Virus record (IMG/VR): IMGVR_UViG_3300028800_000062
Span: 82,743 to 146,742 of that record
Reading direction: 5' to 3' (one strand)
Source of the DNA: a virus
DNA length: 64,000 bases
A program made the position numbers and the translations under genes. This document shows positions 1 to 35,301 of the stretch, in pieces (the stretch's first letter is position 1; every line of letters starts with the position of its first letter). Below the pieces are notes generated by a model. The model searched no databases. It was not told where the DNA came from and worked only from the letters and a program-made list of their open reading frames with translations.

Positions 1-10
1 GCATTGGGGG

Positions 11-628
11 GTGTCCACATTAGGTACCTCTTGCGGCAGTAACATGGTGGCCAGCCAGTCTAATCATCCGGGTATCTTCCAGATCGTGAGCGGCAGCACT
101 CCAGGTGATGGCTGTTCTTTAACCCTGTCGGACAACACCGAAGGTGCTCTTTATCCTTTCATCAACTTCGGGTCCGCCGCCGGACTGTCCTGGGAAATCC
201 AGGCCATAGTGCAGACTGACGTCAGTGGAGTAGGGAACGCGAAGTACTTGGTGGGTTTCAGTGATAGCCAATCAACCTACCACCCGGCCAGCGGTAATGA
301 CATTGCAATTCGGTATGACCATTCCGGCGGAGGGTGCGTTTCGAATGAAAGCACCACCACTTGGGTTTACGAAGTTAGTGTTGGCGGAACTAAGACGTGC
401 GTGAATAGCGGTGTTGCGATTGCTTCGAACACCTGGTATCACCTGCGCATATACTCCACCGCGCCAGGCACTATTCAGTTTCAGATCAACGGAGCGAACG
501 CTGGCAGCATTGCAACGGCTCCCACGGCTAACATGGCGCCCCAGTTCCTCACCACGAGTACAGGCGGCTCTCAGGAGTCATTGTTTGTGGACTGGTGGGC
601 CATGAAGATTCAAGGGTTGACTCGATGA
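11..628 (+). CDS. 5'-truncated beta-sandwich (ConA/LamG-like) domain protein
   Basis: Frame open from window start; NTWYHLRI...IQFQING motif; stop overlaps the next ATG (ATGA). Confidence 0.6.
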   Translation: MSTLGTSCGSNMVASQSNHPGIFQIVSGSTPGDGCSLTLSDNTEGALYPFINFGSAAGLSWEIQAIVQTDVSGVGNAKYLVGFSDSQSTYHPASGNDIAIRYDHSGGGCVSNESTTTWVYEVSVGGTKTCVNSGVAIASNTWYHLRIYSTAPGTIQFQINGANAGSIATAPTANMAPQFLTTSTGGSQESLFVDWWAMKIQGLTR

Positions 629-3600
629 AGATTCTCGTCCTACTCACGATTTGTGCTTGTTCCGGGTGGGCTGCCATCACCGGTTTTCAGGTGCAGGGTA
701 CCACGTCCACCCAGGTTCTGGTCTCTTATAAAGCGCCGGATGCCAATGCGTGCACGATTCAAGTTAGTCAGAGCGCGAGTCTGACGCCGCTGGCACTCGA
801 TGTGGACCCTGCCACGTTTGCGAATTCCAATCTCGATCTGAGCCGGCCTAGCACCGTGACTAGTGGAATGTCCAGAACGTTGCTGATCGGCCAACGCACG
901 GTGCAATATGCGACCGCTGGGACATACTCAGGTGTCCGGCACTTTTCCCGCGCACTCCAGGCTTATACGCCTTACTTCGGAATGATTACCTGTCCCTCCA
1001 CCGGGGATACGTACAACTTCACGTTTTCCACCGGCAACATTCCGCTGGGCATGTCCTACGGGGATCCGTTACCGGCCGATCCCGCCGATCCGGGAAATCA
1101 ACCCTGGCCGGAGGCGGTGGGAGGCTTGTCCCCGGAATCCTTCATCGACCCTTTTACCGGAACCTATCTCACGCGCCTGGGCCTGCGTTCGAATAACTTC
1201 GGGTATTGGGGCAGCTTTCCATTCGGATCAGCCTTTAATCAGGGTCAGTTTCCATGCGACAGCGCGGGGCCGTGGACCAACCCCTGCGGCACGATCGTGA
1301 CCGGAGGCGCCGGCAGCGTGACCGTACTCAATAGCCAGGCGCCCCTCATCATCCGGCCGCCGCTCGCCGGAGGCAATGCCTTCAATGGAGGGTATGGGTC
1401 CAACAATTACGGCAGCATGTGGACACTCGATCAGTTTGCGGTTTCTCTGACCGGGCTGGGCAGCTCGACCACTTCCGCATTCCGTGTCCTGGATGTCTGT
1501 CTGTCACTTAACGGCGGCGCTTCCTGCGCCAACTCCGCACAGCAGATCACCATGGGCCAGACCAGCAGCGTGCAGAAGGCCGGCCAGTACAACACCACGC
1601 AGTATGGAGTCATTCCCTGGTTGCTTGATACCAAGCCCAGACTGAACGTACAGGAGGCCTCGCCACACTCAGGAGCGGCTACCGTGAGCGGGAATACCGT
1701 CACCTGGGTTTCCGGCAACCTGTTCAGTCTTTATTGGGTGACGGGCGGTAATGGCACGGTCCGGCTATCGACTGTCTCAAGCAGCGACGCCTGCGCCACA
1801 CCTCCCAATACCACCAGTTCGACGGAATACACCATCCTGGGTATGCCCGATGGAAATCACCTGACGGTGTCCGGAACTCCTCCCGCGGGCAGTGTGTACT
1901 GGTGTGCTGACAATTTCGCTGTCATGGTGTGGCGCGATCAGGCGCCCTCCGACGGAAGCAGTATCACGCTCACGGCCGCTTCCATGGCCGCCATCGAGAG
2001 CACTTCTCCCACTTATCCGGATAACGGCGCGGACCACGCCTGCTTCAACAAGCTGGTGCAGGGTGGATACTTCTGCCTCTATGGCGGCCTTTACTGGATC
2101 AATCCTCAGACAGGTGCCTCTGCCTACTACGGTTACATGACGGCCCCGTCCAACAACCAGAGCGGGCAGGCGATCACTAATCCGTGGCATACCATAGGCA
2201 TCATCCCAGCCAGTGAGTCAGCCAACATCGATCAATCGCAGAATGTCCTGACGTTTTACACTACCGCGATCGATCCGACGAGTGCCACCGCACTGGTGAT
2301 TCAAGGGGTATTCAATCCCACGACGATCGCAACTCCGGCGGCGCCTTACGTCAACGGGAGTCAGATTGGCAGCGCCAATGTGATCGGAAGCACGGCCTAT
2401 TCCGTCACCTACAACAACGGTCTGACCTTTTCCAATCTCACGCCGCAGGTCAGTTTGAATCAAGGAATTGTGGCTCAGATGGCCACACTCGACCCGACCT
2501 TCAAGGTCTCCCAGATAGGGTCGCCGTGGAATTGTCAAGCCTACGGGTTCTCAGGATCCCTCTTCTATTTAGGATGCTACACGAGTTATGAAGATGGTCC
2601 TGGTTGGATTCTGGCCTTCTCTCCAGGGGACGGCAATCCAGCGCATGCCGGCCAAGCCGGAGGGCCTCAGATTGTAGGGGCGATCAGCACTTTCAACACG
2701 CCCAGCAATGCGCCGGTTACCCCCGGGTATGTGGGGATGTACGGCCATGGCCTGCACGCTGTGGTGGAAGCCGACAGTGGCTGGGTGCAGGTCAACACGC
2801 ACTTCCTGCAGCCGATCAACACCAGCAACAACACGTTGCCGGCAACCGGGGTGGATTGCTCTACCTACGGCCTGGCCAGCGGAAAGCAATGCACACTGCT
2901 GAACATCAACAGTTATACGCATGCTTCGGTGACCAGCTATGAGCCTTATTATGCATCGCCTTCCACTCCATTCACCGGAGCTCCCGGGGAAACCCGCACA
3001 GCACAGATCGGGGATACTGCCTGCGTGGCAGTCAGTACGTCGGGGAGCTGCAGCTATACCAGCTCTCAGGAATTGCTGACGCTGGTAGCGAAGAACTATC
3101 AGGGAGTGCAGGGCGCCTGGGTCTTTCAGCGCAACGGCTACGGTGTAGAGAAGGCGATCGCTACTGGGCCTATCACCCTCTGGTGGGCCGCGATCGCTGC
3201 GAACATGCCTCCCGGCAGCGCTGCGGCAGGATCTTTCAGTGTCTACTGGAACCCGGTGACGGGTTGCGCCGGCTCGCCCGATCCGCACGGCAATTGTATG
3301 ACGACCGATACCAATGAGACGGCCGGACACGGAGAATGGCGCAATGGCGGTGAAGCGGTGACTACCAACGTGCCGGACTGGTCGGTACCCATTATGGGTT
3401 GGGGCAGTGTATATCAAACCACTCTGGGAAATGTGCCCGGCATCCTCAGCTTGAACCCGACCAACGTGACACCTGATGTGACTCCCGGCATAAACTACGT
3501 GAACGACGAGCCTCCCTTTGCTGGAGTGTATGGTCATCCTTTCGGCTTCGACGCCGGCAGTCACCCGAATGCGCCGGGAAACCTGGCTCCAGCCAACGAG

Positions 3601-4587
3601 CAGATCCGCGCATTCGACAACGTCCCTCTACAGGGCGGCCAGAATGAACCGACCTGGGTGAGTATTTCCGGGCAACTCTATACCGCGGCGCCGGCATCCA
3701 ATCTGGACGCTGACGATCCTTTTGGTTACGGATCCATTATAGCCATGAACCGTAAATTGTATGCCCAGGGAGCCAGCTGTGGACCCCATCCGCTGACGGA
3801 TATAAGCGGACCGGCATCGAGTATTTCGACCTCTACTGCCAGCTCCTACACTTATTGCTTCGCGCGCACCGCGGGCGAATGTTATTCCGGTAGTTCGGTG
3901 GGTCAAGTCTATGTGAACTGCCCGGGAGTGACAGCAGTTACCTGTCAAGGTTCTGGGATTCACGGCGGGGCGCCCTTCGGGGCCGGTGCGGATATTTGCC
4001 TGGGCAATATCAACAATACGGCCAATGCGGTCCGTCAGTTCACATTGGACCGGACGGACATGGCCGGATTGCGCAGCCGCACCGTGGTTGCCGCCACGGC
4101 GCGCACCCGCATGGTGTACGGGTTCGAGAACAATGAGTTAGTGCCGGACAACTCCTGGCTGTTGTACCGCTCGGATTGGCTGGACTTTCAGCGCGCGGAG
4201 ATGTGGGCGGCTAAGCTGCCGCCGTATCCGCCTGTCGATTCGGTGACGCGCAATACCTTCGTGCCTGTGACGGTCAGCCTGAGACCGGCTGCCGGCCTGC
4301 AGGTCAACAACGCCATCGTCGAGTTTGGGTATCAGGAATATGGGAATACGCTGCTCAACTGTACTACGCGTAACGATATCTGCGTGTCCGCATCGAACGT
4401 CAGGATTTCCGGTACGCAACCGTTTTCCTTCATCTCTGAAAACCCGGCCGGGTTGGCCTGCGCCACCGGCTGCACTCTCGTGATTCCGGCCCTTTCGCAG
4501 AGAGTCCTGTATTACCGGGTCGTGTATCGTAGTCTAACTAACAGTGTGTTGTACACGGGTCCACTGACGTCAGTGGTGGTTCCGTAA
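625..4587 (+). CDS. Large secreted Cys-rich beta-rich protein with Fn3-like ends
   Basis: About 1320 aa; start at ATGA overlap gives signal peptide MKILVLLTICACSGWA. Confidence 0.8.
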   Translation: MKILVLLTICACSGWAAITGFQVQGTTSTQVLVSYKAPDANACTIQVSQSASLTPLALDVDPATFANSNLDLSRPSTVTSGMSRTLLIGQRTVQYATAGTYSGVRHFSRALQAYTPYFGMITCPSTGDTYNFTFSTGNIPLGMSYGDPLPADPADPGNQPWPEAVGGLSPESFIDPFTGTYLTRLGLRSNNFGYWGSFPFGSAFNQGQFPCDSAGPWTNPCGTIVTGGAGSVTVLNSQAPLIIRPPLAGGNAFNGGYGSNNYGSMWTLDQFAVSLTGLGSSTTSAFRVLDVCLSLNGGASCANSAQQITMGQTSSVQKAGQYNTTQYGVIPWLLDTKPRLNVQEASPHSGAATVSGNTVTWVSGNLFSLYWVTGGNGTVRLSTVSSSDACATPPNTTSSTEYTILGMPDGNHLTVSGTPPAGSVYWCADNFAVMVWRDQAPSDGSSITLTAASMAAIESTSPTYPDNGADHACFNKLVQGGYFCLYGGLYWINPQTGASAYYGYMTAPSNNQSGQAITNPWHTIGIIPASESANIDQSQNVLTFYTTAIDPTSATALVIQGVFNPTTIATPAAPYVNGSQIGSANVIGSTAYSVTYNNGLTFSNLTPQVSLNQGIVAQMATLDPTFKVSQIGSPWNCQAYGFSGSLFYLGCYTSYEDGPGWILAFSPGDGNPAHAGQAGGPQIVGAISTFNTPSNAPVTPGYVGMYGHGLHAVVEADSGWVQVNTHFLQPINTSNNTLPATGVDCSTYGLASGKQCTLLNINSYTHASVTSYEPYYASPSTPFTGAPGETRTAQIGDTACVAVSTSGSCSYTSSQELLTLVAKNYQGVQGAWVFQRNGYGVEKAIATGPITLWWAAIAANMPPGSAAAGSFSVYWNPVTGCAGSPDPHGNCMTTDTNETAGHGEWRNGGEAVTTNVPDWSVPIMGWGSVYQTTLGNVPGILSLNPTNVTPDVTPGINYVNDEPPFAGVYGHPFGFDAGSHPNAPGNLAPANEQIRAFDNVPLQGGQNEPTWVSISGQLYTAAPASNLDADDPFGYGSIIAMNRKLYAQGASCGPHPLTDISGPASSISTSTASSYTYCFARTAGECYSGSSVGQVYVNCPGVTAVTCQGSGIHGGAPFGAGADICLGNINNTANAVRQFTLDRTDMAGLRSRTVVAATARTRMVYGFENNELVPDNSWLLYRSDWLDFQRAEMWAAKLPPYPPVDSVTRNTFVPVTVSLRPAAGLQVNNAIVEFGYQEYGNTLLNCTTRNDICVSASNVRISGTQPFSFISENPAGLACATGCTLVIPALSQRVLYYRVVYRSLTNSVLYTGPLTSVVVP
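4534..4550 (+). promoter_or_regulatory. 17-bp operator-like motif CTAACTAACAGTGTGTT (copy 1)
   Basis: Identical to the reverse complement of 52726-52742; lies just upstream of the 4604 gene. Confidence 0.65.
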
Positions 4588-4603
4588 TAGGACTGAGATC
4601 TCT

Positions 4604-6307
4604 ATGATTACCAAAAGGTTGATTGCTTTCGTGCTGCTGGCTGGCGGGTTGTTCGGCCAACAGCCGATCAAGAGAAACATGATCTGCGTGGCGGCCAGCG
4701 GGTCGGGCACTGCTTATGCCTGTAACATCGCATCGGCTCCTTCTGCGTATACCCTGAGTGAACGTTATCTGTTCAAAGCGGATGTGGCCAACACCGGCGC
4801 TGCGACTATTTCCTTCAACGGTATTGGCGCAGTACCGATCGTGAAGCTGGTGGGTGGGGTCGCCACCAATCTGGCCGCCGGGGATATCCAACTCGGCGAA
4901 TGGGTTAGTGTGATCTATGACAACACCGGCAGTCCGGTAATGCAGAAGCAGTCCATTCCGCAGGTTGTCGCGGACTGGAATGCCGCTTCCGGGCTGGCGC
5001 AAATCCTCAACAAGCCTACTATCCCAACCGGCGCTCCCAGCACCTGGCCCAGCTTCGCTGGTGTGGCAACATCCGGTAGCTACTCCGACTTGTCGAACAA
5101 GCCGACTGTGCCTGCAGCAGCGAGCACCACACCTGTAATGAATGGAACCGCAGCGATTGGATCCGCGGCAACCTACGCGAAAGCCGATCACGTTCACCCT
5201 ACTGATACTTCCAGGCAGGCCACCATCACCGGAGCTCCCGGGACCTGGCCTAGTGCCTTTGCACCGGTTGCTCCCACGGTATCGACGCTGGGCGGAATCA
5301 ACGCAAAGGATTGTTCCGTAGGTGGCCAGGTCATGCAGAAAGTCAACACGGATGGCAGTGTGACCTGTGTCAACCAAACTGGCGGAGGAATGGCCGACCC
5401 TGGTTCAAACGGCCTGTTGAAGCGCACGGGCATCAACACTACAGCAGTCGCTATAGACGGACTGGGTGGCGATTACGTGTCGGCCGCCTCGGTCAATAAC
5501 GGCACTTTGCCCATGAGCATTCTGAGCCTGCTGGTGGCCAATGGCATCACTGCCACCGGTAACATTTACGCCAACAGCACCAGTCTCGTAGCAGGTTGTG
5601 TGGTGCTCTCCGATTCCAACGCGGTGCACGATATGGGACTGTGCGCCCCGAGTTCCGGATATTCAGGTTTCCTGAATCTTCCCACCGCCGCCGGCACTCT
5701 CAATCAGTTTCTGCTCAGTGACGGGAACGGGGGGCTCGTGTTCTCAGGCACGGCTCCGGCGGGAGCTGTAGTAGGTACCACGGACGCCCAGAACCTGAGC
5801 AATAAGGTCATCGATGGAGTGTCTGCGACCACGATGGCGTTCATGGATGCGACGTCTTCCATCCAGACCCAGTTGAATACCAAGTTCGCTACGGCGAATG
5901 CCGCCGCGGCTGCCACTCTAGGAGTTCCGATACCGCTAGGCTGTTCGGGATCGTCCACCGCTAATACAACCGGGGGTGTCACTTACCTCTGGCCCTCCGG
6001 AGGTACTTATAGCTGTGCTAGCGGCACAGCGCCTGTAGGCATCATGGGTATCCCGATGCCCTACAACTGCACAGTCAAGTCGATGTATGTCAAAGTCAGC
6101 GCAGCCCCTGCCACAGGCAGCGATGCGGTAACGTTGTACCACAACGGCACAGCGAGCGCAGTGACTTGTTCTATAGGCCCGGGTCTCTCTTGTAATGACA
6201 CGGCGCACAGCAGCGTGTTTTCCGCAGGTGACACTCTGGCGGTCGGTGTGGCTGTGCAGGCGTCGGATGCCATTGCAAATATCCGAGTTGGGGTTTCCTG
6301 CCAATGA
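4604..6307 (+). CDS. Tail-fibre-like protein with signal peptide
   Basis: Phage fibre motifs NTGAATISFNGIGAVPI, ADWNAASGLAQILNKP, ATSGSYSDLSNKP, AKADHVHP; N-terminus MITKRLIAFVLLAGGLFG|Q. Confidence 0.75.
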   Translation: MITKRLIAFVLLAGGLFGQQPIKRNMICVAASGSGTAYACNIASAPSAYTLSERYLFKADVANTGAATISFNGIGAVPIVKLVGGVATNLAAGDIQLGEWVSVIYDNTGSPVMQKQSIPQVVADWNAASGLAQILNKPTIPTGAPSTWPSFAGVATSGSYSDLSNKPTVPAAASTTPVMNGTAAIGSAATYAKADHVHPTDTSRQATITGAPGTWPSAFAPVAPTVSTLGGINAKDCSVGGQVMQKVNTDGSVTCVNQTGGGMADPGSNGLLKRTGINTTAVAIDGLGGDYVSAASVNNGTLPMSILSLLVANGITATGNIYANSTSLVAGCVVLSDSNAVHDMGLCAPSSGYSGFLNLPTAAGTLNQFLLSDGNGGLVFSGTAPAGAVVGTTDAQNLSNKVIDGVSATTMAFMDATSSIQTQLNTKFATANAAAAATLGVPIPLGCSGSSTANTTGGVTYLWPSGGTYSCASGTAPVGIMGIPMPYNCTVKSMYVKVSAAPATGSDAVTLYHNGTASAVTCSIGPGLSCNDTAHSSVFSAGDTLAVGVAVQASDAIANIRVGVSCQ

Positions 6308-7935
6308 GACGTCTCCTGTGGTTAGTCTTGCTGGTCGCGCCAGTCTTCGCGCAGACTTGCAATATTCTGACACCGAGCAACTGTAAGGACACTGGTTCGC
6401 CGGTTGGTTTTACCGGCAACCAGGCCTGCTCGGCGACGGACTTACTGCCTGGCGGAGCTTGCCAGAACGGCCTGTATGCCCAGTCTCCCACACTGAAGTC
6501 CTTCGTGACCGGTTTGTCTACTTCTTTGCCGGCATTGACGAGTTGGGCCGCGGCACAGCCGGCCAAGCCGCCAATCTATTTCTCAGGCGAACTGGTGCCG
6601 CTGTCCATGAATTACGTCAACCTGGATTCGCACTCCTGCGGAGGTTCCGGGGTGACCAAGTCCCTCAGTCCCTGCCCCTGGAACAATTACCTGAATGCCA
6701 ACGCCTGGACGGATAAGCTGGTCAACGCACCACCATCCGGTGTGGGCTTGAACTCGCTGGATATCAATATCTGGACCAGCCCTCTGTTTACCTCGTCAAC
6801 CTACGCGGCCGCCTGCACGAGTTATATCGCTGCAGGTGGCGGCAACATCTGTTCTTCGATCGTGGCCAGCGTGACGGCCAACAGTCCGCAGGGTGCCTGT
6901 ACGCAATGCACCGCCTCCAATATCGCCTGGTGGGCGCGCGGACTGACCACCTACCAGAATGCGATCGCGCATATCAAGGCTAAGGCAGGTGTGCGGCTCC
7001 GGCTGGCACCAATGATCAATGGCGATACGCTGCTGGCCTGCAACATGAATCAGGGAGTTGGCAACTGGACCGCTCAACAGTTGCAGGATTGTATGATTCC
7101 CGCCGAAATCGCCATGGCAGCCTTGTGGAGTGTGGATGATCTTTCCATCTGGCACGAACCTTGTGGCGTGGCCAAGCTGGTAATGAACGGCGGGACAGGT
7201 GGTTGTGTGCCGGCTGTTAGCGACCTGCACGCTATGATCACGATGGCTATCCCGCTACTGAATGCCGCTTCCATCAACCCCAATATTCAGTTGGGTGCAG
7301 GTGTGACCGCGGGTGATATCGGAGGCATTCCGTATAATGCCAGCAATTCCGGCAACTACTGGTCGGACTGGTTCACGATCCCTGGATTGAACTTCCAAGG
7401 TATCGACGCTTATCCTATTTCTAGTCAGCCGAGCAGCAACTACTTCACTTATACGATCAACGTCTTCACCATGATGACCCAGGACGCAATCGCGCATGGC
7501 AAGAAAGTATGGGACAGCGAGTCGGCGCCGCCGAGATGGGAAACCACAAATGCGTCGATCGGTGCCGGTGAAAGCTCCGCTTACCTGGGGTGCGGCGATC
7601 AGGAGTGGTATAACGACGGAACCGGGCCGGCCTGGCTGCTCGCCTATACGTCTTATGGGCGGGCCGTAGGGCTAACCGGCTTCAGTCTGTTCGGTACGGA
7701 GATGTGGCTCGTCCAATCGACGGATCCAAACAATAACCACTGCAGTTCGAGCGGGGATGGAACTCCGGGGCAATTCGACCAGTGGGCTCTCAATGCAGCG
7801 ATCACCAATGCTCCGCTCTCCCCTTTGGGAACAGTGATGGGTCAAATCACATCGGATAATTCCACGGATACGGTGCCGGGAGTCTCTTTGACAGGTAGGG
7901 CACGGCTGACCGGCCGCGCGAGATTAGGACGGTAA
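6304..7935 (+). CDS. Secreted putative clan-A glycoside hydrolase / depolymerase
   Basis: Signal peptide MRRLLWLVLLVAPVFA|Q; WHEP, FQGIDAYP and GKKVWDSE motifs in TIM-barrel order. Confidence 0.5.
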   Translation: MRRLLWLVLLVAPVFAQTCNILTPSNCKDTGSPVGFTGNQACSATDLLPGGACQNGLYAQSPTLKSFVTGLSTSLPALTSWAAAQPAKPPIYFSGELVPLSMNYVNLDSHSCGGSGVTKSLSPCPWNNYLNANAWTDKLVNAPPSGVGLNSLDINIWTSPLFTSSTYAAACTSYIAAGGGNICSSIVASVTANSPQGACTQCTASNIAWWARGLTTYQNAIAHIKAKAGVRLRLAPMINGDTLLACNMNQGVGNWTAQQLQDCMIPAEIAMAALWSVDDLSIWHEPCGVAKLVMNGGTGGCVPAVSDLHAMITMAIPLLNAASINPNIQLGAGVTAGDIGGIPYNASNSGNYWSDWFTIPGLNFQGIDAYPISSQPSSNYFTYTINVFTMMTQDAIAHGKKVWDSESAPPRWETTNASIGAGESSAYLGCGDQEWYNDGTGPAWLLAYTSYGRAVGLTGFSLFGTEMWLVQSTDPNNNHCSSSGDGTPGQFDQWALNAAITNAPLSPLGTVMGQITSDNSTDTVPGVSLTGRARLTGRARLGR

Positions 7936-7947
7936 GCGAGGATCCCT

Positions 7948-8193
7948 ATGTTTCAGTCTTTTAGCGATGTACAAACGGCTGTGGATGCACTGACTGCGCG
8001 GGTCAATGCTCTCGATGGGCAGAATCTCCCGAATCCGTCCACAGCCGCCATCAATGTGTTGCAGGCTAATGTTGCCGGCGCTCAGGAGACCATCAATCAG
8101 CTGGTGCTCACCCTGGATTCCCAATTACAGGACCTGCAGACCACAGTCAATAACCTGCAACTGGCGGTGAACCGGCTCAACGGCATATCATGA
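7948..8193 (+). CDS. Small coiled-coil protein
   Basis: Heptad pattern; GAGG SD. Confidence 0.7.
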   Translation: MFQSFSDVQTAVDALTARVNALDGQNLPNPSTAAINVLQANVAGAQETINQLVLTLDSQLQDLQTTVNNLQLAVNRLNGIS

Positions 8194-8369
8194 TTCTGAA
8201 TCTGACTGAATCGGAGATCGAGGTGTTGTGGTGGGCGGTTGGAAACAGCCGCCGCGTCCTGCATCCGGATCCGGCCACTAATGTGACCTGTCAATGTTCT
8301 TGTTGTACGGCTTTTCGCAGAGTGGATGAGCGCTTCCGGGACGTGGTCGCCAACCGGCACCGCGTCTAA
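8190..8369 (+). CDS. 59-aa hypothetical protein (not in ORF track)
   Basis: ATGA overlap with previous stop; MILNLTESEIEVLWWAVG...CQCSCC...; fills the gap to the convergent gene. Confidence 0.5.
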   Translation: MILNLTESEIEVLWWAVGNSRRVLHPDPATNVTCQCSCCTAFRRVDERFRDVVANRHRV

Positions 8370-9085
8370 CGGAAGGCTCCCGCGGCGGCGGCGCCGGTGA
8401 GCATGCCGGCCGCGGTCGGGGCAATGGCGCCGGTGATGGATAACGGGATCCGAAGCCAGTTGGGAAGAGGCTTGGTAGCGATCGCCAGGTTCGTCATCAT
8501 GTGTTCCGTAGCCTGGCTGGCCTTGGCGCTGGCATCCGTGGTAATGGCCACGTTGTGACCGATGTCCTTCCAGGTGACTAGCATACTTGGCAGTGCGCGC
8601 TGAAAGTCCCGGCTGGATTCGGCCAGCTCGCCGGCGGTGACTTTTGAGGCCGCCACCAGTCCCAGCAGCTGCGGATGCAGATCCTTGATGGTCTTATCCG
8701 TATCAAGCACCGTCTGATCCAGGTGCGCGGTGATCGCTCCGGCGTTCTGGAGTACCGGCTGCAGATCGGTGCGCAGCCCATGCACTTCGCCTACCGCAGT
8801 ATCCACACGTTCGAGACCTTCCTGAATACTGACATGCGCGGTATCCACACCGTGGCGGATCTCAGTCTGGGACGCGAAACGCAGATCCGTGAGCTGCCCG
8901 TGCACTTCCTTCAGTAATTCTCCGCGTGTACGATCGAGCTGTGCATTGATCAAGGACCGGGTCTTGTCCGATTCCCTCTGGGCCACGCCGAACTGAGCTT
9001 TGACCAGCGCGCGGGCGTCCAGGAGCAGCAGGCACAGACAGATGGTAACGGCGACAGCGCAGCCGGCGTAGATGTATTTACCCAT
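8366..9085 (-). CDS. Membrane-anchored coiled-coil protein (possibly spanin-like)
   Basis: N-terminal TM, long helical region, hydrophobic C-terminus. Confidence 0.65.
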   Translation of the reverse strand: MGKYIYAGCAVAVTICLCLLLLDARALVKAQFGVAQRESDKTRSLINAQLDRTRGELLKEVHGQLTDLRFASQTEIRHGVDTAHVSIQEGLERVDTAVGEVHGLRTDLQPVLQNAGAITAHLDQTVLDTDKTIKDLHPQLLGLVAASKVTAGELAESSRDFQRALPSMLVTWKDIGHNVAITTDASAKASQATEHMMTNLAIATKPLPNWLRIPLSITGAIAPTAAGMLTGAAAAGAFR

Positions 9086-9668
9086 GGAGAAAAGCTCCTT
9101 CTTTGCCTAGATATTGGCGAGCGTTCAGCAGGCTGCGCGACATTTCCTGCGCGGCGGCCTGGCGCATCGTCCAGGCGGGCTCGCTATCCACGTAATCGCC
9201 TCCGGTCTGCAGCCTGGTCATGTTCCGGCCGGCGTCGGCGGCATACTGCATCGCTTTGCCAACAGAGGCCTGCAACATCGGATCGAGAACAAAGCCTCCC
9301 ACCAGGCCTCCCAGGCCGCCTCCTAAAGCCGTGCCGATGGCCATACCGAGGAAGGGCGTGGCGCCGGCAGCAAATGCGGACAGTTTGTGGCGATGGGGTG
9401 CTTGTGCCGCGCTGAATAGCGCGATCGGTAAACCGAAAGTGAGATAACCGCCCAGCAGGGAACCGCCCGCTAATTTGCCAGCGTCGTTCAGGTGCGGTCC
9501 AGCTTCCTTGATACCTGCCCAAGCCGTGGCTCCGCGCTTTCCCCGCTCGGCAAACATGGCGGGGATGATTCCCTGCCGGGAAACCAGGTTTCCCCAGTTG
9601 CCGGGCCACAGCATCCGGGCCATGTCATCGACTTGCCCGCCTACTATCGGAACTCCGAATATGTTCAT
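9078..9668 (-). CDS. Glycine-zipper phage protein, possibly virion-internal
   Basis: GTALGGGLGGLVGG; C-terminal TMRQAAAQEMSRSLLNARQYLGKE. Confidence 0.6.
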   Translation of the reverse strand: MNIFGVPIVGGQVDDMARMLWPGNWGNLVSRQGIIPAMFAERGKRGATAWAGIKEAGPHLNDAGKLAGGSLLGGYLTFGLPIALFSAAQAPHRHKLSAFAAGATPFLGMAIGTALGGGLGGLVGGFVLDPMLQASVGKAMQYAADAGRNMTRLQTGGDYVDSEPAWTMRQAAAQEMSRSLLNARQYLGKEGAFLHG

Positions 9669-10126
9669 CAGGCAGCCTTGGCGTATCCCATCAGGCGGTC
9701 TTTGGCGCCCTTCGGGTCTTTAACGATCTGGTGTTCCCAGAGAAGCATCAGGTGGTAACCGGCGTTGGTCAGGAAAGTAAACCGTCGCGCATCCCGCCGG
9801 CGCCAGCGCAATTGTTGCTTGGTCAGACTCGAAGTTGGGTTACATACCGGGCAGCTGTGCCAATAACAGCCCTGGACTTCCAGTACGGTTTGTGGCGGCA
9901 GGAAGAAGTCCACGTGCGTCCTGGAGATGGCATGCTCCGACTTATAGGGGATGCCCAGTTCCAGCAGCCAGCCTTCGACGATCGCCTCGATTCCGGATTG
10001 CTTGTGTACCTTGCGCTGAATTGTGTGCCAGGAGTGTCCCCGGCGGGCTTTGGCCTTAGCCGAGACCACCAGGCGCAGCTTGCGTTTGCGCGCGGGAGGT
10101 TTAGTCCCTTTGCACTTCCGGGCCAT
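9668..10126 (-). CDS. Vsr/DUF559-like endonuclease
   Basis: VDFFL...LEVQGCYWHSC...RDARR...GYHLMLLWEHQI. Confidence 0.8.
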   Translation of the reverse strand: MARKCKGTKPPARKRKLRLVVSAKAKARRGHSWHTIQRKVHKQSGIEAIVEGWLLELGIPYKSEHAISRTHVDFFLPPQTVLEVQGCYWHSCPVCNPTSSLTKQQLRWRRRDARRFTFLTNAGYHLMLLWEHQIVKDPKGAKDRLMGYAKAA

Positions 10127-10932: not shown

Positions 10933-10954
10933 CAGTTGTTAGTATAGGTGCGGA

Positions 10955-13755: not shown

Positions 13756-13756
13756 G

Positions 13757-15751: not shown

Positions 15752-15909
15752 TGCCGCGCCGCCTCCTTTACGGCATCGGAAACCGCTTTCCAGCTTTTCT
15801 TGATCCGGGGCGGCAGGGCCATCCATTCAGGCAGGATCTTGCCAGTCATGGGACAACGTCCCTGATTCTCCGTACGGTAGGTTTCGTATGCGATGCCAGC
15901 GAGTGTCAT
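15748..15909 (-). CDS. 53-aa hypothetical protein (not in ORF track)
   Basis: ATGA overlaps at both ends; MTLAGIAYETYR...LPEWMALPPRIKKSW. Confidence 0.65.
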   Translation of the reverse strand: MTLAGIAYETYRTENQGRCPMTGKILPEWMALPPRIKKSWKAVSDAVKEAARQ

Positions 15910-16454: not shown

Positions 16455-16459
16455 GATTC

Positions 16460-18016: not shown

Positions 18017-18023
18017 ATAGGTT

Positions 18024-22453: not shown

Positions 22454-22456
22454 GAC

Positions 22457-23251: not shown

Positions 23252-23376
23252 TTGGATCCTTTCTTCTTGGGAAGCGGCGGAGGCCAGTGTTCCGGCCGGC
23301 CAGGCTTCCACAGATCGTTGGGGCGTTGTGGTGCAATGATGCCGTATTTCCGTGGTCTTGCTGTAGCGCTTTTCAT
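23248..23376 (-). CDS. 42-aa basic Pro-rich microprotein (not in ORF track)
   Basis: ATGA and GTGA overlaps; MKSATARPRKYGIIAPQRPNDLWKPGRPEHWPPPLPKKKGSK. Confidence 0.5.
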   Translation of the reverse strand: MKSATARPRKYGIIAPQRPNDLWKPGRPEHWPPPLPKKKGSK

Positions 23377-24869
23377 GCGGTCAACCTGATGGAATCGTAT
23401 TGATCCGTGGTGTACACGGACCGTGAACCTGGATCGAAGATGTATGCGTCGTACTGGAAACGCACCGGCACCAGATAACTGCCGGTCCAGATCCAGGGGC
23501 GCTGCCGGGCATCAAAACCCAGACCGGCGATATCAGAAACTACTTCGCTTAGATCCAGCTGCACGGCCGAAAAGGCGAAGTTGCCGTAAACCTGCACGTC
23601 CTGAGTGATGAGGTTATTCAGATCGGAGCACTCCAGGGTGAACACGTAGGTTCCCGTCCACGGCAGTTGCAGGCTCATGTTGGGCAGTGGCCCTCCGATC
23701 CATCCGGAAGCACCATCCAAACTGGCCAGAGTACCGGAAGACGTCACTACGTAGCTCATTCCATTCGGAGCATCTACCCGCAACCGGCACTGCCTCAGGT
23801 TGCCTGAGGTCTCGTGTGGAATGGCATGGATAGCCACCGCGGCAATCTGCCCCACATGGGTTTGATCGTAAGACAAGCTCAAACTGTACAGGGGCTCGGT
23901 GGTGATGACTGCCCGGCTCAACATGTCCGGCATCGGTTCCCGCCGGTCGGCGTAATACAGGTTGGTGCCCGCGTAGAGGAACAAACCGTATGTGTTCGGT
24001 TCGACCGTCAGGCCAAGCATGTTGGATGGCAGCAGGCAGCTGTGCACAACCTCAAATCCGGACCAGCGGTTGATGGCGTAGACTTCCTGCAGGTGCAGGG
24101 AATCCAAAGTCCAATAACGCCGGAAGGTTACGTCCCGGTAGGCGGCCAGCGAGACCGGCCGCATATCGTCGGGCTGGTAGGGGCAACCAAATGGAAACAG
24201 CAGCACCTGAAGGGTGGCGCCGGACGGTAATCCGAAGACCTGAATATCATCGACGGACTGCCAGGTCCCGCGCGTGCTGAACAATCCATTGTCATTGATC
24301 GAAACCGTTTCCGATTGCGATAGTAGGTCGGCCGCCCAGTAGTCACAAGGATAAGTCCGGCCTTTAAGGATTACCGTGATATTACTGCTGAAGTTTCCCA
24401 GGTCGGTGACCCAGAAATAGAGCTGATTGGGCAGAGGGAGGTCCAGAGATCCGCCATCCTGAGGATCGTCCGTGCCGCTGAAAGTAATCAGCACAGGGTC
24501 GCCGCAGGCTACCGTAGAGCGATCCGGGTCGGGCACTATGGCCGTGGGGACCGGAATCGTATCGTCGTAGGGTTGTAGGCTGACGTAAGTGCCGTTGCGG
24601 AGGCCTTCGACTTTAGTGGGCCCGGTTGCAGGCAGGCTCATAGGCACCGGAACCCTGTAGTAGATTCCGCGGCCGTCCAGATTGGCCGGGCAGGTGTCGA
24701 AGGACTGCGCGTCGATCTCCCGCTGCATGCGAGTTTCGCCTTCCTCGAGTGATATGGCCGCGGCATTGAGCAGTTGCCCGTCCAACGTGAACGGTAATTC
24801 TCTGCTGCGTGGGTCCAGGTGGTCGAAGTAATTGCGCAGTGCCTGCGTGCGGTGAGAATGATGAATCAT
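23373..24869 (-). CDS. Putative baseplate structural protein
   Basis: 498 aa ORF in baseplate cluster. Confidence 0.6.
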   Translation of the reverse strand: MIHHSHRTQALRNYFDHLDPRSRELPFTLDGQLLNAAAISLEEGETRMQREIDAQSFDTCPANLDGRGIYYRVPVPMSLPATGPTKVEGLRNGTYVSLQPYDDTIPVPTAIVPDPDRSTVACGDPVLITFSGTDDPQDGGSLDLPLPNQLYFWVTDLGNFSSNITVILKGRTYPCDYWAADLLSQSETVSINDNGLFSTRGTWQSVDDIQVFGLPSGATLQVLLFPFGCPYQPDDMRPVSLAAYRDVTFRRYWTLDSLHLQEVYAINRWSGFEVVHSCLLPSNMLGLTVEPNTYGLFLYAGTNLYYADRREPMPDMLSRAVITTEPLYSLSLSYDQTHVGQIAAVAIHAIPHETSGNLRQCRLRVDAPNGMSYVVTSSGTLASLDGASGWIGGPLPNMSLQLPWTGTYVFTLECSDLNNLITQDVQVYGNFAFSAVQLDLSEVVSDIAGLGFDARQRPWIWTGSYLVPVRFQYDAYIFDPGSRSVYTTDQYDSIRLTA

Positions 24870-25360
24870 CAGAATGTGCGCCCGATACCGAGTTCAAACT
24901 TGGAAGTCATGGAAGATCCACTCGAAACAGCCTTCACGCCGACTGTAAACATGGTCTGCTTCCGAGAATAGGCCAGCATGCCTCCGCCGGAGAATGTTCC
25001 TACCATGGACGGGCTGGTGGAACTGCCTCCATCGGCCAGGGCAATGAGTGAAAAGGGACCGGATACAGCTACTACCATCGCTACGCCGGTGCGGACCTGG
25101 GATTGCTGTCCGGTCATTTCGATCGTGGTCATGGAGTAAAGTCCCCCCACACAGCCATAGACCGGGTTTTCTGACGCAGTGCAGACCTGCACACCAAGCT
25201 TGATGCCGAAGGTAACCCATCCTACCGCCACCGGGGATCCGTAGGGAGTCACCCCGGCGCCCGCGAAGGCAAAGTAACTGGTCTGGGAAACCGGTGGAGT
25301 TACAGGAGTTTGCGCGAAGATCGGAAGCACGAACAGAAGAACGGCAAGTAGGCGTCTCAT
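24869..25360 (-). CDS. Small outer-membrane beta-barrel protein (Lom/Ail-like role)
   Basis: Signal peptide MRRLLAVLLFVLPIFA|Q, amphipathic strands, C-terminal FELGIGRTF beta-signal. Confidence 0.6.
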   Translation of the reverse strand: MRRLLAVLLFVLPIFAQTPVTPPVSQTSYFAFAGAGVTPYGSPVAVGWVTFGIKLGVQVCTASENPVYGCVGGLYSMTTIEMTGQQSQVRTGVAMVVAVSGPFSLIALADGGSSTSPSMVGTFSGGGMLAYSRKQTMFTVGVKAVSSGSSMTSKFELGIGRTF

Positions 25361-25372
25361 TAGAACCTTTCC

Positions 25373-26572
25373 TTAATTAGTGATGGCTAGGGAAATTGCA
25401 GTGGGAATCTCTTCCGTGATTACTCGTTCTCCCAGAGCTGGAGTGTAGTTCGCAATCAGGAAGCGGCTATAGCGGGTGCCGTCTGTACGGCTGCGCCAGA
25501 TGAGTACATTGCCCAACGGACGGTTCGGGTCTCCCACATCTAGGATCCTCGAGTCTGAGTTCAGGATCTGGTCGGCGATATCGTTCAGCACCAAGGTGTC
25601 ACCGATAGCCAGATTGTTGATGTAGTTCTCGACAGCGGAAACCGCGGCCGCTACGATGGAGGTCTGGTCACTCTGACTGGCAGATGCCGTCAGGGTCAGG
25701 GTGGTCGCCAGGCTGATCCCCACCAGATCCGGCGCCACGGCAATACCCGTGAGCGGAAAGGCGACCGTGTTGTTGATTGCCTGCTGTACACTCTGTAACA
25801 GCGCCGCCGAACCATCCGAAGCAATGCCGTAGACATAACAGGTGAACGTGCCCGCGGCCGGCGCAAACACTACGTCCTGAATCCCAGGAATCTGCAGGAT
25901 CTGAAAGCGCAGCGCCGCCTCATTGGCTCCATTCTGCGCCTGCAGCTTTAATCTGATCCGATACCGGTAATCATCATCGAGCTCGGCATCGCGCCCGCCC
26001 ACAATTCCATAATTGTTGGTCACCAACAGCGACCCATACCGGCTCTCGGTATAGTTGGTGAAATTCGACTGCGAGAAGATCCCGGAGGCCGCGTTGCCCG
26101 CCGCGCCCGAATACAGAGCCGTGGCACTAAAGGACATCGAGCTGGCCGCCGCCGGCAGCGTCATAGGGTCCGCGATATACACCGGCCCGTTCACCCCCGC
26201 CGCCGTATAAATGCGCACCCCCGAAGGAATCACAATGTCCTGGCCACTGTTGATTGAACCAAAAGTCCCATTGCGGACAAACCACTCAAAGTTCTGATCG
26301 CCAATATCCACGCTGGCAGTCTGCTGCGCCAGGCGCGGCACACCGAAGATCTCCCCGATCAAATCCAGGCTGGTATCGGTGGCAAAAGGCAGAAGCGACT
26401 GGGCAATATTCAGGAACTGGCGGTTCTCCAGCTCGGCCAGCTCGTTGGCCACGATGTCGCCGAACGCCCGCGCCTTGCCTCCCGGCGCCAGCTGCCGGAT
26501 GCCGGTGGCGGAGAGGGCAGCCAGGATGTCGGATTGGTAACCGGAATAGTTCTTCGGAGACTGAATAGCCAT
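25373..26572 (-). CDS. Baseplate J/gp47-like protein
   Basis: ATDTSLDLIGEIFGVPR, GAAGNAASG, GGRDAELDDDYRYRI; start revised to MAIQSP. Confidence 0.9.
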   Translation of the reverse strand: MAIQSPKNYSGYQSDILAALSATGIRQLAPGGKARAFGDIVANELAELENRQFLNIAQSLLPFATDTSLDLIGEIFGVPRLAQQTASVDIGDQNFEWFVRNGTFGSINSGQDIVIPSGVRIYTAAGVNGPVYIADPMTLPAAASSMSFSATALYSGAAGNAASGIFSQSNFTNYTESRYGSLLVTNNYGIVGGRDAELDDDYRYRIRLKLQAQNGANEAALRFQILQIPGIQDVVFAPAAGTFTCYVYGIASDGSAALLQSVQQAINNTVAFPLTGIAVAPDLVGISLATTLTLTASASQSDQTSIVAAAVSAVENYINNLAIGDTLVLNDIADQILNSDSRILDVGDPNRPLGNVLIWRSRTDGTRYSRFLIANYTPALGERVITEEIPTAISLAITN

Positions 26573-26580
26573 AAGAGCGC

Positions 26581-27069
26581 CTATTGCCCCATGATGGGAA
26601 TGATCTGCACGGAGGATCCGAGATCGGTGAATACCTGGGTTGAAATGATGCTGGCCCCGTTCAGCGTGTTCCAGGTGGGTGGCAACTGTGGGCAGCTGTT
26701 GGTCTGGCAATAGGTCTGTAGGGCAGGTACTCCAATCAATCGAATGGAAGCTTGCATCAGCAGATCCTGTATCGAGGAGAATTTGGCTTTAACCACGAAG
26801 GAGCCATCAGCTTGTTGTATCTTCCAAGTTTGCCCGGTAACGAATGACTGCAGGGCACTAACTTGATAGTTTGGCAACGGCTGAATCACCACAATTGGAA
26901 CCGGCGCCGGGGTTGGGGTGCGCATATCGAGTGTGATCATGGTGACGGTGCCTGGTTGAAATGTCTGGCAGGTCTGCGCCCCGGTGCCTAAAGACCAGCA
27001 TACGTTCACTGGTTGTTGAGCCAGCATCGTGATTGCACCGGCCAAAAGTAAGAGAATGACTTTCTTCAT
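26581..27069 (-). CDS. Secreted hypothetical protein
   Basis: Signal peptide MKKVILLLLAGAITMLA|QQP; paired Cys. Confidence 0.7.
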   Translation of the reverse strand: MKKVILLLLAGAITMLAQQPVNVCWSLGTGAQTCQTFQPGTVTMITLDMRTPTPAPVPIVVIQPLPNYQVSALQSFVTGQTWKIQQADGSFVVKAKFSSIQDLLMQASIRLIGVPALQTYCQTNSCPQLPPTWNTLNGASIISTQVFTDLGSSVQIIPIMGQ

Positions 27070-27076
27070 CGTTGCC

Positions 27077-29362
27077 TCAGAACTGAGTAAGAGTGTGGAA
27101 ACTATACACGCCGCTGGCGGACTTGCCGCAAACCTGCTCGTTATCGCCCAGCAGGTCGTCCTCGACGAAGAAATGCTGACCACGAGTGGTCTGGTTACAC
27201 ATTAGGGGCTGGGACACATCCACCGGCTGTACTGTTTGCACCGCTAGATTCTTTACAGCATTAACCAACACGTAAGTCAGCGCACCTGGGTTGAGATCGT
27301 AGAGCTGCGTAGGCTCCGCGTCGGTGGGATTCAACTTCGCCGAAAAGGTCCCAACGCTGTACGGGATTACGTTCATAGCATCCTGAGCCAGCAATCCGAT
27401 GCCGGTCATGCCGGCGGTCAAACCAGCCAGGCCGTTGTATTCAAACGCCACCGGATTCAAAGCATTGATAGTACTGAGGCCGTCAAGAAAAGGTCGGATA
27501 TTGGTCTTCAGCCGGGCATCTGAATATACGGTCCAGGTAGCGGTAGCGGCTTTGGATGCTGAGTCGGTAGATAGTTCCAACTGATGGGTGGGGTTGGTGA
27601 CACCGATTCCGATGTTGCCACTTGAATTGATAAAGAGGCGCGTACCGCCGGCGGTGGCCAGGGCGATTGAAGCGTTTGCATCGCCATTATTGATAGTAAA
27701 ATCCCCGGTTGCGTGCTTTAGAATGTCCACGATGGCGATGCCGGTCCCTGCCGAGTTTTCCGTAATCATACGCAGATCGAAGCCACTCGCGGCAGGTGCG
27801 GTATTGGAATTGTATAAGTCTAGGTAACCTAAGGAAGCGTTGGAGCTGAGGAACCTTCCTACGCTGGAATTGGAACCTTCCGCTTGAAAGATGTAAGTAG
27901 GATTTGTGACCCCGATGCCTAGACTTCCACCGGCTGTCCATCGACCGTACTCCGTGAACGTTTGCGTAGAACCGTTAAATTTGCCGAATGCAATGTTCCC
28001 ACCAGCAGCCCCGGCGTAGATTTGCAGCGTACTCGCCGCGATTCCCAGTCCGTATGAATCGACTCCGCCTGAATCGTAGACGTACAACTTATTCGATGCA
28101 ACGGATGACCCGAGAGACAACAGTGCACTTGGAGCAGTTGTTCCGACGCCTACATTCCCTCCGGTATAATCCGCGGTCGATCCATTCAGAGTCCACAGTC
28201 CCACATTGTTCGGGATGCCGCTCAGACGCGCCCAAGGTACTGTACCTGAAGACAGCGTGCCAACAGCTGTAATGAAACTACTCCCGGCCCAGGTAGAGAG
28301 CGCTGTGTTCTGCACGTTGCCAAGGCCCACTTTGTTGGCGCTGATGTTTAGCCAGGGGGGATCGCTGTAGGAACCGTTGGTGTAAACCCCATTGGTCACC
28401 GTACTCGCGTTCGTAGCCGTGGTGGCGTTGCCTGAGATGTTGATGGAATAGGTCCCGCTGGTGATCTTCGTCGCATAGTTCCCGGCGGCCAGAGCTGCGA
28501 TCGGAATGCTCGCCGCGGTCAGGCCCGCTCCGGACCCGTTGAATTGACCGGTGATCGTTGCGTTACCCGCCACCTGTAAGGTATCGATCCCATTATCGGT
28601 GGCAGTTCCAGCCAACACCCGACCGGTATAAGACAGAGCCCCGCTCAGGACGGTCCAGGGGTTGGCCGCGTTGGTCACGGTGGATATAGAAGTCACGCGG
28701 CCAGCAGCATCGATGGTAAGGACTGGGATGGCAGAGGTACTGCCGTAGGTACCTACCGCGGCGCCGGAGGCCGGCAGCTGCGACACGCTGATGGAAGGGG
28801 AGCACCAGAATGGAGGACCGGCTACTGAACCATTTCCCTGAGAACACAACGTATGGATCGTGGTTGAATTCAGACCGTGCAGGATCGAAAGAGCATTATC
28901 ACCCGATCCGTAGATCAGATCGCCGACGGCGTAGTGGGAATTGCCTATATCCATGAATGCGGTGGGGTCGTTGGCCAGCGGAATCGCGGTAGAGAGGTTC
29001 CAGGTAGGACCTGCGATCATATAATTCTGCGTATAGACCAGCTGGCTACCCGCGTAAATATTCACCTGATAGTAGGTCTGTCCAAGTACGGTGCCGCAGG
29101 AGATGATGTCGTTGCCCACCAGGGTTCCGCGCAGGATGCCGGCCGGGTTGGGGACCATGGTCGCCGTAGCCGGCACGATGATGGAGGAGCCTATAACCAG
29201 GGGGATATTGCCGCCGCAGTTCTCCAGGGTGAATTGCACGGTGCGATTGGAGCTCATCGGCTGCCCGGTGAGATTCACGATGTTGCCGCTGATCACCGTG
29301 GCCGGAAGGGAACGAAGCAGGAGCAATAGGCCGGCGGCCAAACGTAAATAACGCAAGGTCAA
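27077..29362 (-). CDS. Tail fibre with peptidase S74 intramolecular chaperone and N-terminal signal peptide (start may be 29356)
   Basis: GNVGVGTTAP/GNIGIGVTNP repeats, IDAAGRVT, SDARLKTNI...IGLLAQD...LVNAVKNL. Confidence 0.85.
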   Translation of the reverse strand: MTLRYLRLAAGLLLLLRSLPATVISGNIVNLTGQPMSSNRTVQFTLENCGGNIPLVIGSSIIVPATATMVPNPAGILRGTLVGNDIISCGTVLGQTYYQVNIYAGSQLVYTQNYMIAGPTWNLSTAIPLANDPTAFMDIGNSHYAVGDLIYGSGDNALSILHGLNSTTIHTLCSQGNGSVAGPPFWCSPSISVSQLPASGAAVGTYGSTSAIPVLTIDAAGRVTSISTVTNAANPWTVLSGALSYTGRVLAGTATDNGIDTLQVAGNATITGQFNGSGAGLTAASIPIAALAAGNYATKITSGTYSINISGNATTATNASTVTNGVYTNGSYSDPPWLNISANKVGLGNVQNTALSTWAGSSFITAVGTLSSGTVPWARLSGIPNNVGLWTLNGSTADYTGGNVGVGTTAPSALLSLGSSVASNKLYVYDSGGVDSYGLGIAASTLQIYAGAAGGNIAFGKFNGSTQTFTEYGRWTAGGSLGIGVTNPTYIFQAEGSNSSVGRFLSSNASLGYLDLYNSNTAPAASGFDLRMITENSAGTGIAIVDILKHATGDFTINNGDANASIALATAGGTRLFINSSGNIGIGVTNPTHQLELSTDSASKAATATWTVYSDARLKTNIRPFLDGLSTINALNPVAFEYNGLAGLTAGMTGIGLLAQDAMNVIPYSVGTFSAKLNPTDAEPTQLYDLNPGALTYVLVNAVKNLAVQTVQPVDVSQPLMCNQTTRGQHFFVEDDLLGDNEQVCGKSASGVYSFHTLTQF

Positions 29363-35293: not shown

Positions 35294-35301
35294 TGGCAAA
35301 C

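Follow-up and report, generated by a model that had tools for sequence, protein, structure and literature searches.

The window analyzed here is the last 64 kb (64,000 nucleotides) of a linear, 146,742-base virus record, IMGVR_UViG_3300028800_000062 of IMG/VR, which has a G+C content of about 57%. The record is that of an uncultured contractile-tail-type phage, and its host is probably a member of the Bryobacteraceae (Acidobacteriota), an assignment that is moderate, not firm. We found that at least 13 late genes of this phage, tail fiber genes among them, encode proteins that begin with predicted signal peptides, and these proteins are in all likelihood exported through the Sec pathway. Textbook assembly of tailed phages is wholly cytoplasmic; judged by their sequences, the signal-bearing proteins very probably reach their folded state in the periplasm, away from the compartment in which tailed phages assemble their particles.

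Leaders, cysteines, and their conservation

Leaders were called by our own rule-based scan, which looks for a basic n-region, a hydrophobic core of 7 to 15 residues, and small residues at -3 and -1. Among the 163 open reading frame (ORF) starts scanned, 13 passed the rule, versus 3 of the 575 internal Met positions used as controls (p about 6e-12). An earlier note on this DNA had named six genes with typical signal peptides, 625-4587, 4604-6307, 6304-7935, 24869-25360, 26581-27069, and 27077-29362 (the S74 fiber, called after its Peptidase_S74 chaperone domain), and all six indeed show the n-h-c layout of Sec/signal peptidase I leaders, in the sequence itself as well as in the scan. The set is larger than these six, however: the ORF at 2-628 is the end of a seventh such gene, and six more lie further upstream. 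These seven additional genes start before the window, at genome positions 37280, 40825, 56340, 62354, 65313, 79002, and 80233, the last of them ending at window position 628. The leaders, 16 to 19 residues long, open with one or two basic residues, continue with 8 to 14 residues of hydrophobic core, and close with a small-x-small site; Shine-Dalgarno motifs precede the start codons of their genes. No N-terminal segment of this kind is present in core virion proteins without a leader, for example baseplate J and a portal-like protein. The 13 genes are spread over five late blocks, several of them overlapping their neighbors by 4 bases, and their products amount to about 8,070 mature residues, or about 16% of the record's length.

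Three other interpretations of these N termini were rejected. A Tat signal does not agree with leaders of 16 to 19 strongly hydrophobic residues, in which MRRLL appears without the rest of the S/T-R-R-x-F-L-K motif; a lipoprotein signal would call for a canonical L-[AS]-[GA]-C box, which the leaders lack; and a leaderless isoform made from a downstream start is contradicted by downstream Met residues that are not conserved in homologues. Signal-peptide-like starts also occur in the nonstructural part of the window, on the minus strand, at 39208-39702 (164 aa, cut between ...CAFA and ARD) and 43702-44079 (125 aa, cut between ...PVMA and AEA), where the products are not fiber-like.

By comparing the signal-bearing proteins with their relatives, we found that the leader is kept in kind, not in sequence. 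The syntenic contigs L002 and L003 hold counterparts of the 1045-, 1320-, 567-, and 543-aa genes, every one with a leader, and in three of the four orthologue pairs the leaders are 25 to 44% identical versus 63 to 72% over the next 60 residues. This combination of a drifting leader and a conserved mature start is what functional signal peptides usually show. When the S74 fiber was used as a HMMER query, its first 190 residues had homologues in proteins whose lengths range from 114 to 1731 aa, and in all 11 intact N termini of this family, that of a Bryobacteraceae chromosomal remnant included, the leader varies and the TV(I/V)(S/T)G behind it is invariant. Only two homologues start after the hydrophobic segment, and both are truncated remnants, one without the first 40 mature residues and the other with its end frameshifted and a stop lying 12 codons upstream. 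The earlier note had named homologues starting past this segment as a refutation of its proposal; these two do not amount to one. In a large search, 41 of 138 Met-starting S74-containing representatives bear leaders.

The cysteines follow the same division. The Cys count is even in 12 of the 13 predicted mature chains (p = 0.0017), a bias that fits disulfide pairing in an oxidizing compartment. The predicted mature signal-bearing chains contain 1.67 Cys per 100 aa versus 0.92 in leaderless proteins of at least 200 aa, and most leaderless tail and baseplate proteins have only 0 to 3 Cys in chains of 400 to 800 residues. The Cys richness pointed out earlier for most of the six proteins is thus seen in the whole set, by density and by parity. 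As far as sequence analysis reaches, the leader conservation, the restriction of exceptions to remnants, and the Cys parity all support the proposal of the earlier note that these fibers are exported and disulfide folded.

Gln occupies the predicted +1 position in 11 of the 13 signal-bearing proteins versus a background of 4.8%, and the four cases counted earlier among the six named proteins are confirmed. The likely host family seems to have the same habit. In a 160-kb sample of one Bryobacteraceae genome (L022-L029, G200:C16:100001-260000), Gln follows the cut in about 8 of 12 convincing leaders, with endings such as ...VWA, ...LTA, and ...LAA, and Glu_cyclase_2 is encoded in both Bryobacteraceae genomes tested (1e-100 and 5e-87). 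The phage leaders thus appear to copy the Gln-cut habit of their likely host family, and the idea of pyroglutamate capping of the signal-bearing proteins gains support, because this family encodes a glutaminyl cyclase and its leaders mostly end before Gln. The predicted processed N-terminal peptides would be pyroGlu-QPIKR, pyroGlu-TCNILTPSNCK, and TVISGNIVNLTGQPMSSNR. The Q-rule has been said not to apply outside Bacteroidetes (PMC10653852); our small Bryobacteraceae sample questions that statement, and a Q-rule-like habit may exist in Acidobacteriota.

The signal-bearing proteins and their gene neighborhoods

The S74 fiber lies on the minus strand at 27077-29356. Its leader (about 29300-29356, ...RYLRLAAGLLLLLRSLPA) is predicted to be cut between ...SLPA and TVISG and is followed by a conserved N-domain of about 170 aa and by fiber repeats; the chain has 6 Cys. 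The S74 chaperone (27353-27523, minus strand, residues 614 to 670) matches Pfam PF13884 with 42.7 bits against a cutoff of 22, its catalytic SDxxxK motif, as defined in PMC10769870, is present as SDARLK at residues 614 to 619, and PHROG tail fiber families match the protein at 7e-10. Both the chaperone and the tail fiber kinship assigned to this ORF before are borne out by these matches. Its start at 29362 is not: the ORF stands, but the second TTG (29356) is the more likely start, because it has the better Shine-Dalgarno spacing and gives the MRYLRL start of the homologues. A PDB sequence search found no chain similar to the S74 fiber at an E value of ≤0.01.

Directly before the S74 fiber lies the gene of a 145-aa protein (29359-29796, minus strand), whose stop overlaps the first TTG of the S74 ORF (29362) within TTGA, the preferred start at 29356 being just downstream. 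The earlier note took this protein for the holin; it has a coiled coil and, by hydropathy, one C-terminal membrane segment, with no family match, so that we would call it holin-like at most. Counterparts precede the fiber in L005, L006, and L012. Further upstream are a leaderless SLT-type lytic transglycosylase (29906-30610, minus strand; Pfam SLT 6.5e-06, 26.2 bits versus 21.3), which is an endolysin candidate, and a sigma-70 region-4-like protein (30597-31700, minus strand; L005 counterpart 7244-8386). The latter heads the block of SLT enzyme, membrane protein, and signal-bearing fiber both in the window and in L005, and it could serve the fiber operon as a late sigma factor of the phage. 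The order sigma-like protein, SLT enzyme, small membrane protein, JAB-domain protein, and signal-bearing fiber is kept in L005 and L006, where a Prok-JAB protein directly precedes the fiber (L005:9558-9992 and L006:1146-1574); the window has no such gene at this place.

Similar arrangements are found elsewhere. Prophage L012, a different and smaller phage, has a coiled-coil gene directly before a signal-bearing fiber with collagen and fiber repeats and also carries a signal-bearing barrel-like 177-aa gene, and a 204-kb contig matches the gene order of the upstream part of the record, with a signal-bearing 332-aa protein followed by a GDSL protein. In species-representative genomes, the sole matches were two truncated copies of the fiber N-domain, in metagenome-assembled genomes of Bryobacteraceae, beside mobile-element genes. 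Contigs of Bryobacteraceae and short metagenome contigs (L004:2-319, L017:290-570, L018, and L019) carry truncated fiber N-domains beside genes of integrase, transposase, or excisionase-like type, and these copies look like decayed prophage ends.

The 13 proteins comprise four mosaic tail fibers, a GDSL esterase, a likely glycosidase, an outer membrane barrel, and six members of unassigned family, and tblastn of all of them against the whole record located fiber repeats solely inside signal-bearing genes. One fiber, of 1045 aa, has its C-terminal 208 aa encoded at 2-628 (plus strand); its gene starts at genome position 80233, 2,509 bases before the window, with the leader MKRFFGLLILCAAGLHG cut before QPKYP. 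The tip of this protein is a concanavalin-like lectin domain (Pfam SO2946-like_C, 6.2e-08, and Laminin_G_3), its repeats are 66% identical to those of an upstream 1182-aa signal-bearing protein, and its L002 orthologue keeps the leader. Another fiber, of 567 aa with 12 Cys, is encoded at 4604-6307 (plus strand), with its leader at 4604-4657 (MITKRLIAFVLLAGGLFG, cut between ...LFG and QQPIKR). It bears the tail fiber repeat motifs SGSYSDLSNKPT and AKADHVHP. The protein has no Pfam or PHROG match; its repeat finds 319 proteins, several with tail fiber Pfam families (Phage_fiber_2 and PTR), and together with the motifs these homologues uphold its description as a tail-fiber-type protein. Leaders occur on 17 of its 120 listed homologues, and its closest relative, P0001, keeps both the leader and the QQPIKRN start. 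The 567-, 1045-, and 1182-aa proteins share repeats mutually and with hundreds of fibers elsewhere, mostly leaderless.

Between these fibers, the plus-strand gene 625-4587 encodes an exported protein of 1320 aa and unassigned family, with its leader at 625-672 (MKILVLLTICACSGWA, cut between ...SGWA and AITG) and 28 Cys in the mature chain. Its L003 orthologue (1396 aa) is 25% identical in the leader and 63% identical in the mature start, and no Pfam, PHROG, or PDB sequence match was obtained. The gene 6304-7935 (plus strand) overlaps the end of the preceding gene by 4 bases and encodes an enzyme-like protein of 543 aa with 16 Cys and a leader at 6304-6351 (MRRLLWLVLLVAPVFA, cut between ...VFA and QTC). 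No Pfam or PDB match was found, and the homologue search was empty at an E value of ≤0.001; L003 has a weakly similar syntenic gene. In the Atlas, it gave a feature score of 0.90 with the ten best named hits all in the GH5/53/39/Glyco_hydro_cc clan, the structure comparison gave TM values of 0.46 to 0.58 with a model pLDDT of 0.52, and the sequence contains a WHEP motif. As a lead only, these models suggest that the protein is probably a TIM-barrel glycoside hydrolase of clan GH-A.

On the minus strand, the gene 24869-25360 encodes an outer membrane beta-barrel of 163 aa with its leader at 25313-25360 (MRRLLAVLLFVLPIFA, cut between ...IFA and QTP). It has no Pfam match at the sequence level; Atlas models relate it to PagL/OMP_b-brl clusters (TM 0.64 to 0.80, feature score 0.96), and its C terminus, ...GIGRTF, ends in an aromatic residue like a barrel assembly signal, in agreement with the beta-barrel proposed earlier. 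The gene 26581-27069 (minus strand) encodes an exported protein of 162 aa with 4 Cys and a leader at 27019-27069 (MKKVILLLLAGAITMLA, cut between ...MLA and QQP), for which Pfam and PHROG gave no family match. An upstream 469-aa signal-bearing protein has the GDSL esterase domain (1.1e-09). PDB sequence searches of six proteins returned nothing usable.

Several leaderless genes complete the picture. The Baseplate_J protein (25373-26575, minus strand; Pfam 2.8e-23, 83 bits versus a cutoff of 21.1) marks the baseplate operon, and its tblastn matches are distant, with 23 to 33% identity to baseplate proteins of cultured phages. An 81-aa coiled-coil protein (7948-8193, plus strand) adjoins signal-bearing fiber genes in relatives as well: homologues of 79 to 81 aa lie beside such fibers in L002/L003, L005, L006, and L007 (L005:14267-14512, L006:8411-8650, L007:83-322, and L003:11054-11296), and this protein could be an assembly helper or adaptor. 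A Vsr/DUF559-like protein with weak Pfam matches (9668-10126, minus strand) stands within the late baseplate-side operon, has a 119-aa counterpart in L002/L003, and may be a homing or nicking endonuclease. A 239-aa protein (8366-9085, minus strand), whose single membrane segment lies at the N terminus and whose body is long and helical, resembles an inner membrane spanin in layout. A ParA-like ATPase gene is present at 35293-36021 (plus strand; N terminus ...VANQKGGCGKTT) in a record where no integrase was found, and it hints at plasmid-like maintenance or simply at partition during replication.

The part of the record upstream of the window contains an Ig-like Big_5 protein and a gene with a weak match to a portal. 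Megablast against cultured phages gave no close DNA relative, and tblastn of the S74 fiber N-domain against cultured phages gave no match. Scans of IMG/VR with baseplate J and with the S74 fiber N-domain alignment yielded no match, and a scan with the whole S74 fiber yielded a single weak match, at its S74 end. Neither a phage-encoded DsbA nor an integrase was found in the record, which is about 68% complete.

A proposed periplasmic route to the particle and competing explanations

We propose that late in infection the unfolded proteins would pass through SecYEG, after which signal peptidase I would cut the leaders, mostly before Gln, and the host glutaminyl cyclase could cap the new N termini as pyroglutamate. 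The host disulfide machinery would oxidize the proteins, the fibers would trimerize in the periplasm, and the S74 domain would then cleave itself. The membrane protein and the SLT enzyme encoded just upstream would open the inner membrane and the cell wall, so that leaderless particles built in the cytoplasm could meet the stored fibers, and the fiber-type members would dock by their conserved N-domains; the barrel would insert into the outer membrane, and sugars of the envelope or matrix would be the targets of the enzymes. A holin opens lesions wide enough for the cytoplasm and periplasm to mix before the outer membrane fails, and therefore a brief meeting of particles with stored fibers is physically possible. 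That the fiber-type members join particles at lysis is the explanation we favor, though we put it somewhat short of an even chance. The broader idea, that tailed phages of Acidobacteriota (and, by the Cellulophaga records, Bacteroidota) build their particles in two compartments, with fibers matured in the periplasm and attached after holin action, is possible but doubtful.

The link to the virion draws on the S74 fiber family, in which the N-domain is conserved and the distal parts vary (355 to 1731 aa); virion fibers are usually built in this way. It also draws on the fiber kinship of these proteins, on the confinement of fiber repeats to signal-bearing genes, on the embedding of the genes in late operons, and on Cellulophaga phage phi18:3, whose signal-bearing gp085 to gp087 are annotated as virion or tail proteins from tandem mass spectrometry (MS/MS). 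In addition, free receptor-binding fibers would be expected to compete with the phage's own particles for receptors. The earlier note had relied on the position of the S74 fiber inside the late operon. The position is as described, but the argument is weak, because the outer membrane barrel, never a virion part, lies in the same operon, right after baseplate J.

A number of points weigh against docking at lysis. What the sequences show are the leaders with their conservation and statistics, the Cys parity, and the domains, whereas cleavage, oxidation, capping, and above all particle docking are inferred from them. The set includes a barrel and enzymes, so a late signal-bearing gene need not encode a virion part, and in L005 and L006 baseplate J does not come after the signal-bearing fiber. 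The baseplate operon contains large leaderless proteins of unassigned family (815, 689, 661, 518, and 511 aa), which could be the true fibers. The AlphaFold2 model of the S74 fiber N-domain, built from a six-row alignment, reached a pLDDT of 37.6 and is unusable for docking. The completeness of the record is about 68% as estimated by the collection, and no published precedent for a two-compartment route was found. Debris of the cell envelope could have been among the material identified by MS/MS in purified Cellulophaga particles, and the Bdellovibrio mosaic adhesive trimer (MAT) fibers show that the same layout can serve display on a cell surface.

The proteins might be exported and never reach the particle, forming a periplasm-matured, disulfide-hardened toolkit of sugar-binding and sugar-cutting proteins that is released at lysis or acts on the envelope of the infected cell; it would strip or mask matrix and receptor sugars so that progeny are not trapped, and the true virion fibers would be leaderless proteins. 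The entire export evidence applies equally to this possibility, which also accommodates the GDSL esterase, the likely GH-A glycosidase, the lectin-like tip, the outer membrane barrel, and a baseplate operon filled with large unassigned leaderless proteins, and Porphyromonas phages are reported to encode Q-rule secreted proteins thought to alter the host surface (PMC10367356). Yet lysis frees enzymes anyway, which would leave the leader needed for folding chemistry only; free receptor-binding fibers would presumably block the phage's own receptors on neighboring cells; accessories would be claiming a large share, about 16%, of the record's length; the fiber repeat occurs in no leaderless gene of the record; and an N-domain that stays constant while the distal parts are exchanged suggests a fixed docking partner. 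We consider such a toolkit unlikely. The fibers might alternatively be displayed on the carrier cell like the Bdellovibrio MAT adhesins, serving lysogenic-conversion or infection-time adhesion or phage exclusion. The MAT layout is alike, with a leader, a conserved beta-rich N-domain, a long trimeric fiber, a mosaic tip, and S74 in many members (PMC10769870); the leaders on 41 of 138 S74 representatives indicate that exported S74 fibers are common outside known phages; the signal-bearing fiber is the last-but-one gene of prophage L012, adjoining host genes; and the window has a ParA-like gene. However, no integrase was found in the approximately 68% complete record, the genes are embedded in and overlap late structural genes and are not separate units with their own promoters, a route across the outer membrane is neither encoded nor evident, and the 13 proteins have no one common N-domain, unlike the 21 MATs. 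Display on the carrier cell is improbable on this balance.

It could also be argued that the hydrophobic N termini are membrane anchors, baseplate insertion segments, or start codon artifacts, and that the proteins fold in the cytoplasm and acquire disulfides after release, as in Agrobacterium phage Milano. Cleavage was called by rule-based scanning, the annotated S74 fiber start did need correcting, and virion disulfides are possible without export (PMC10811340). Nevertheless, cores of 8 to 14 residues are too short for a membrane span, and they stand between one or two basic residues and a small-x-small site. The leader drifts ahead of a mature start that does not vary, the start codons have Shine-Dalgarno motifs and the downstream Met residues are not conserved, and the sole homologues without the segment are broken remnants. 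Moreover, the leaders of the Bryobacteraceae genome sampled agree in their preference for Gln at +1, and no such segment is seen in baseplate J or the portal-like protein. We regard uncleaved segments as very improbable.

If periplasmic fiber maturation is true, virion assembly gains a late extracytoplasmic step tied to lysis, and fibers gain the chemistry of secreted proteins (disulfides, pyroglutamate, and perhaps glycans), which would suit protease-rich soil. Host range would then depend on the Sec, Dsb, and cyclase machinery of the host, and pipelines that treat a signal peptide as counting against a virion role would mislabel these genes, with a bearing on receptor-binding protein engineering and on the reading of soil viromes. 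On a more modest reading, spending about one-sixth of the recorded genome on exported sugar-binding or sugar-cutting proteins would be a notable answer to the thick Acidobacteriota matrix.

Comparison with known systems

We found no account in the literature of signal peptides on the tail fibers of tailed phages. According to the Hankyphage paper, signal peptides are absent from the DGR target proteins of phages, in contrast to those of bacteria; where the term signal peptide appears in a contractile injection paper and a pilus fiber preprint, it has other meanings. S74-bearing phage fibers resemble the S74 fiber in their C-terminal Peptidase_S74 chaperone with its Ser-Lys dyad, their trimeric state, and their N-terminal attachment, but they lack a signal peptide and their folding is cytoplasmic. 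Lambda Lom and Bor are envelope proteins encoded among late tail genes. By description, Lom is like 24869-25360 in being a signal-bearing small outer membrane barrel inside a tail operon; it is, however, a single accessory gene expressed in lysogens, whereas the barrel described here is one of 13 signal-bearing late genes.

The closest layout is that of the MAT fibers of Bdellovibrio bacteriovorus, such as Bd3182 (Caulton et al. 2024, PMC10769870). Like the S74 fiber, these have a signal peptide, a conserved beta-rich N-domain (about 130 aa in the MAT family, PMC10769870), a long trimeric fiber, mosaic tips, and a C-terminal S74 domain with SDxxxK (13 of 21 MATs). The MATs are chromosomal genes of a predatory bacterium whose products sit on its own surface, whereas the genes described here belong to late operons of a phage, with baseplate J next to them, and the 13 phage proteins share no single N-domain as the 21 MATs do; the likeness noted is one of layout.

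In phages of Bacteroidota, the likeness is one of leaders. Porphyromonas gingivalis phages encode five Q-rule secreted proteins of unassigned function (Matrishin et al. 2023, PMC10367356), whose leaders likewise leave Gln at the N terminus, as host leaders do; these belong to Bacteroidota prophages and are not described as fibers, whereas here the leaders stand on fiber proteins of an Acidobacteriota-linked phage. Cellulophaga phage phi18:3 (Pachyviridae, NC_021794) comes nearer. Its gp085, gp086, and gp087 start with MKNKITIIMILMSISFGYS, MKKTIYILSILLLTISGVSA, and MKHTFSIVLFFILSIGLNA, ending in ...GYS, ...VSA, and ...LNA, each followed by Gln, and are annotated in the record as virion structural or tail proteins from MS/MS; no paper discussing these leaders was found. 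As in the present set, the proteins are phage encoded, have host-style leaders before Gln, and adjoin lysis genes. The phage differs in being short tailed and of Bacteroidota, and its proteins have few Cys (0 to 3); the likeness noted is one of leader and annotation. Cultured Cellulophaga phage systems such as this one allow the question to be tested directly.

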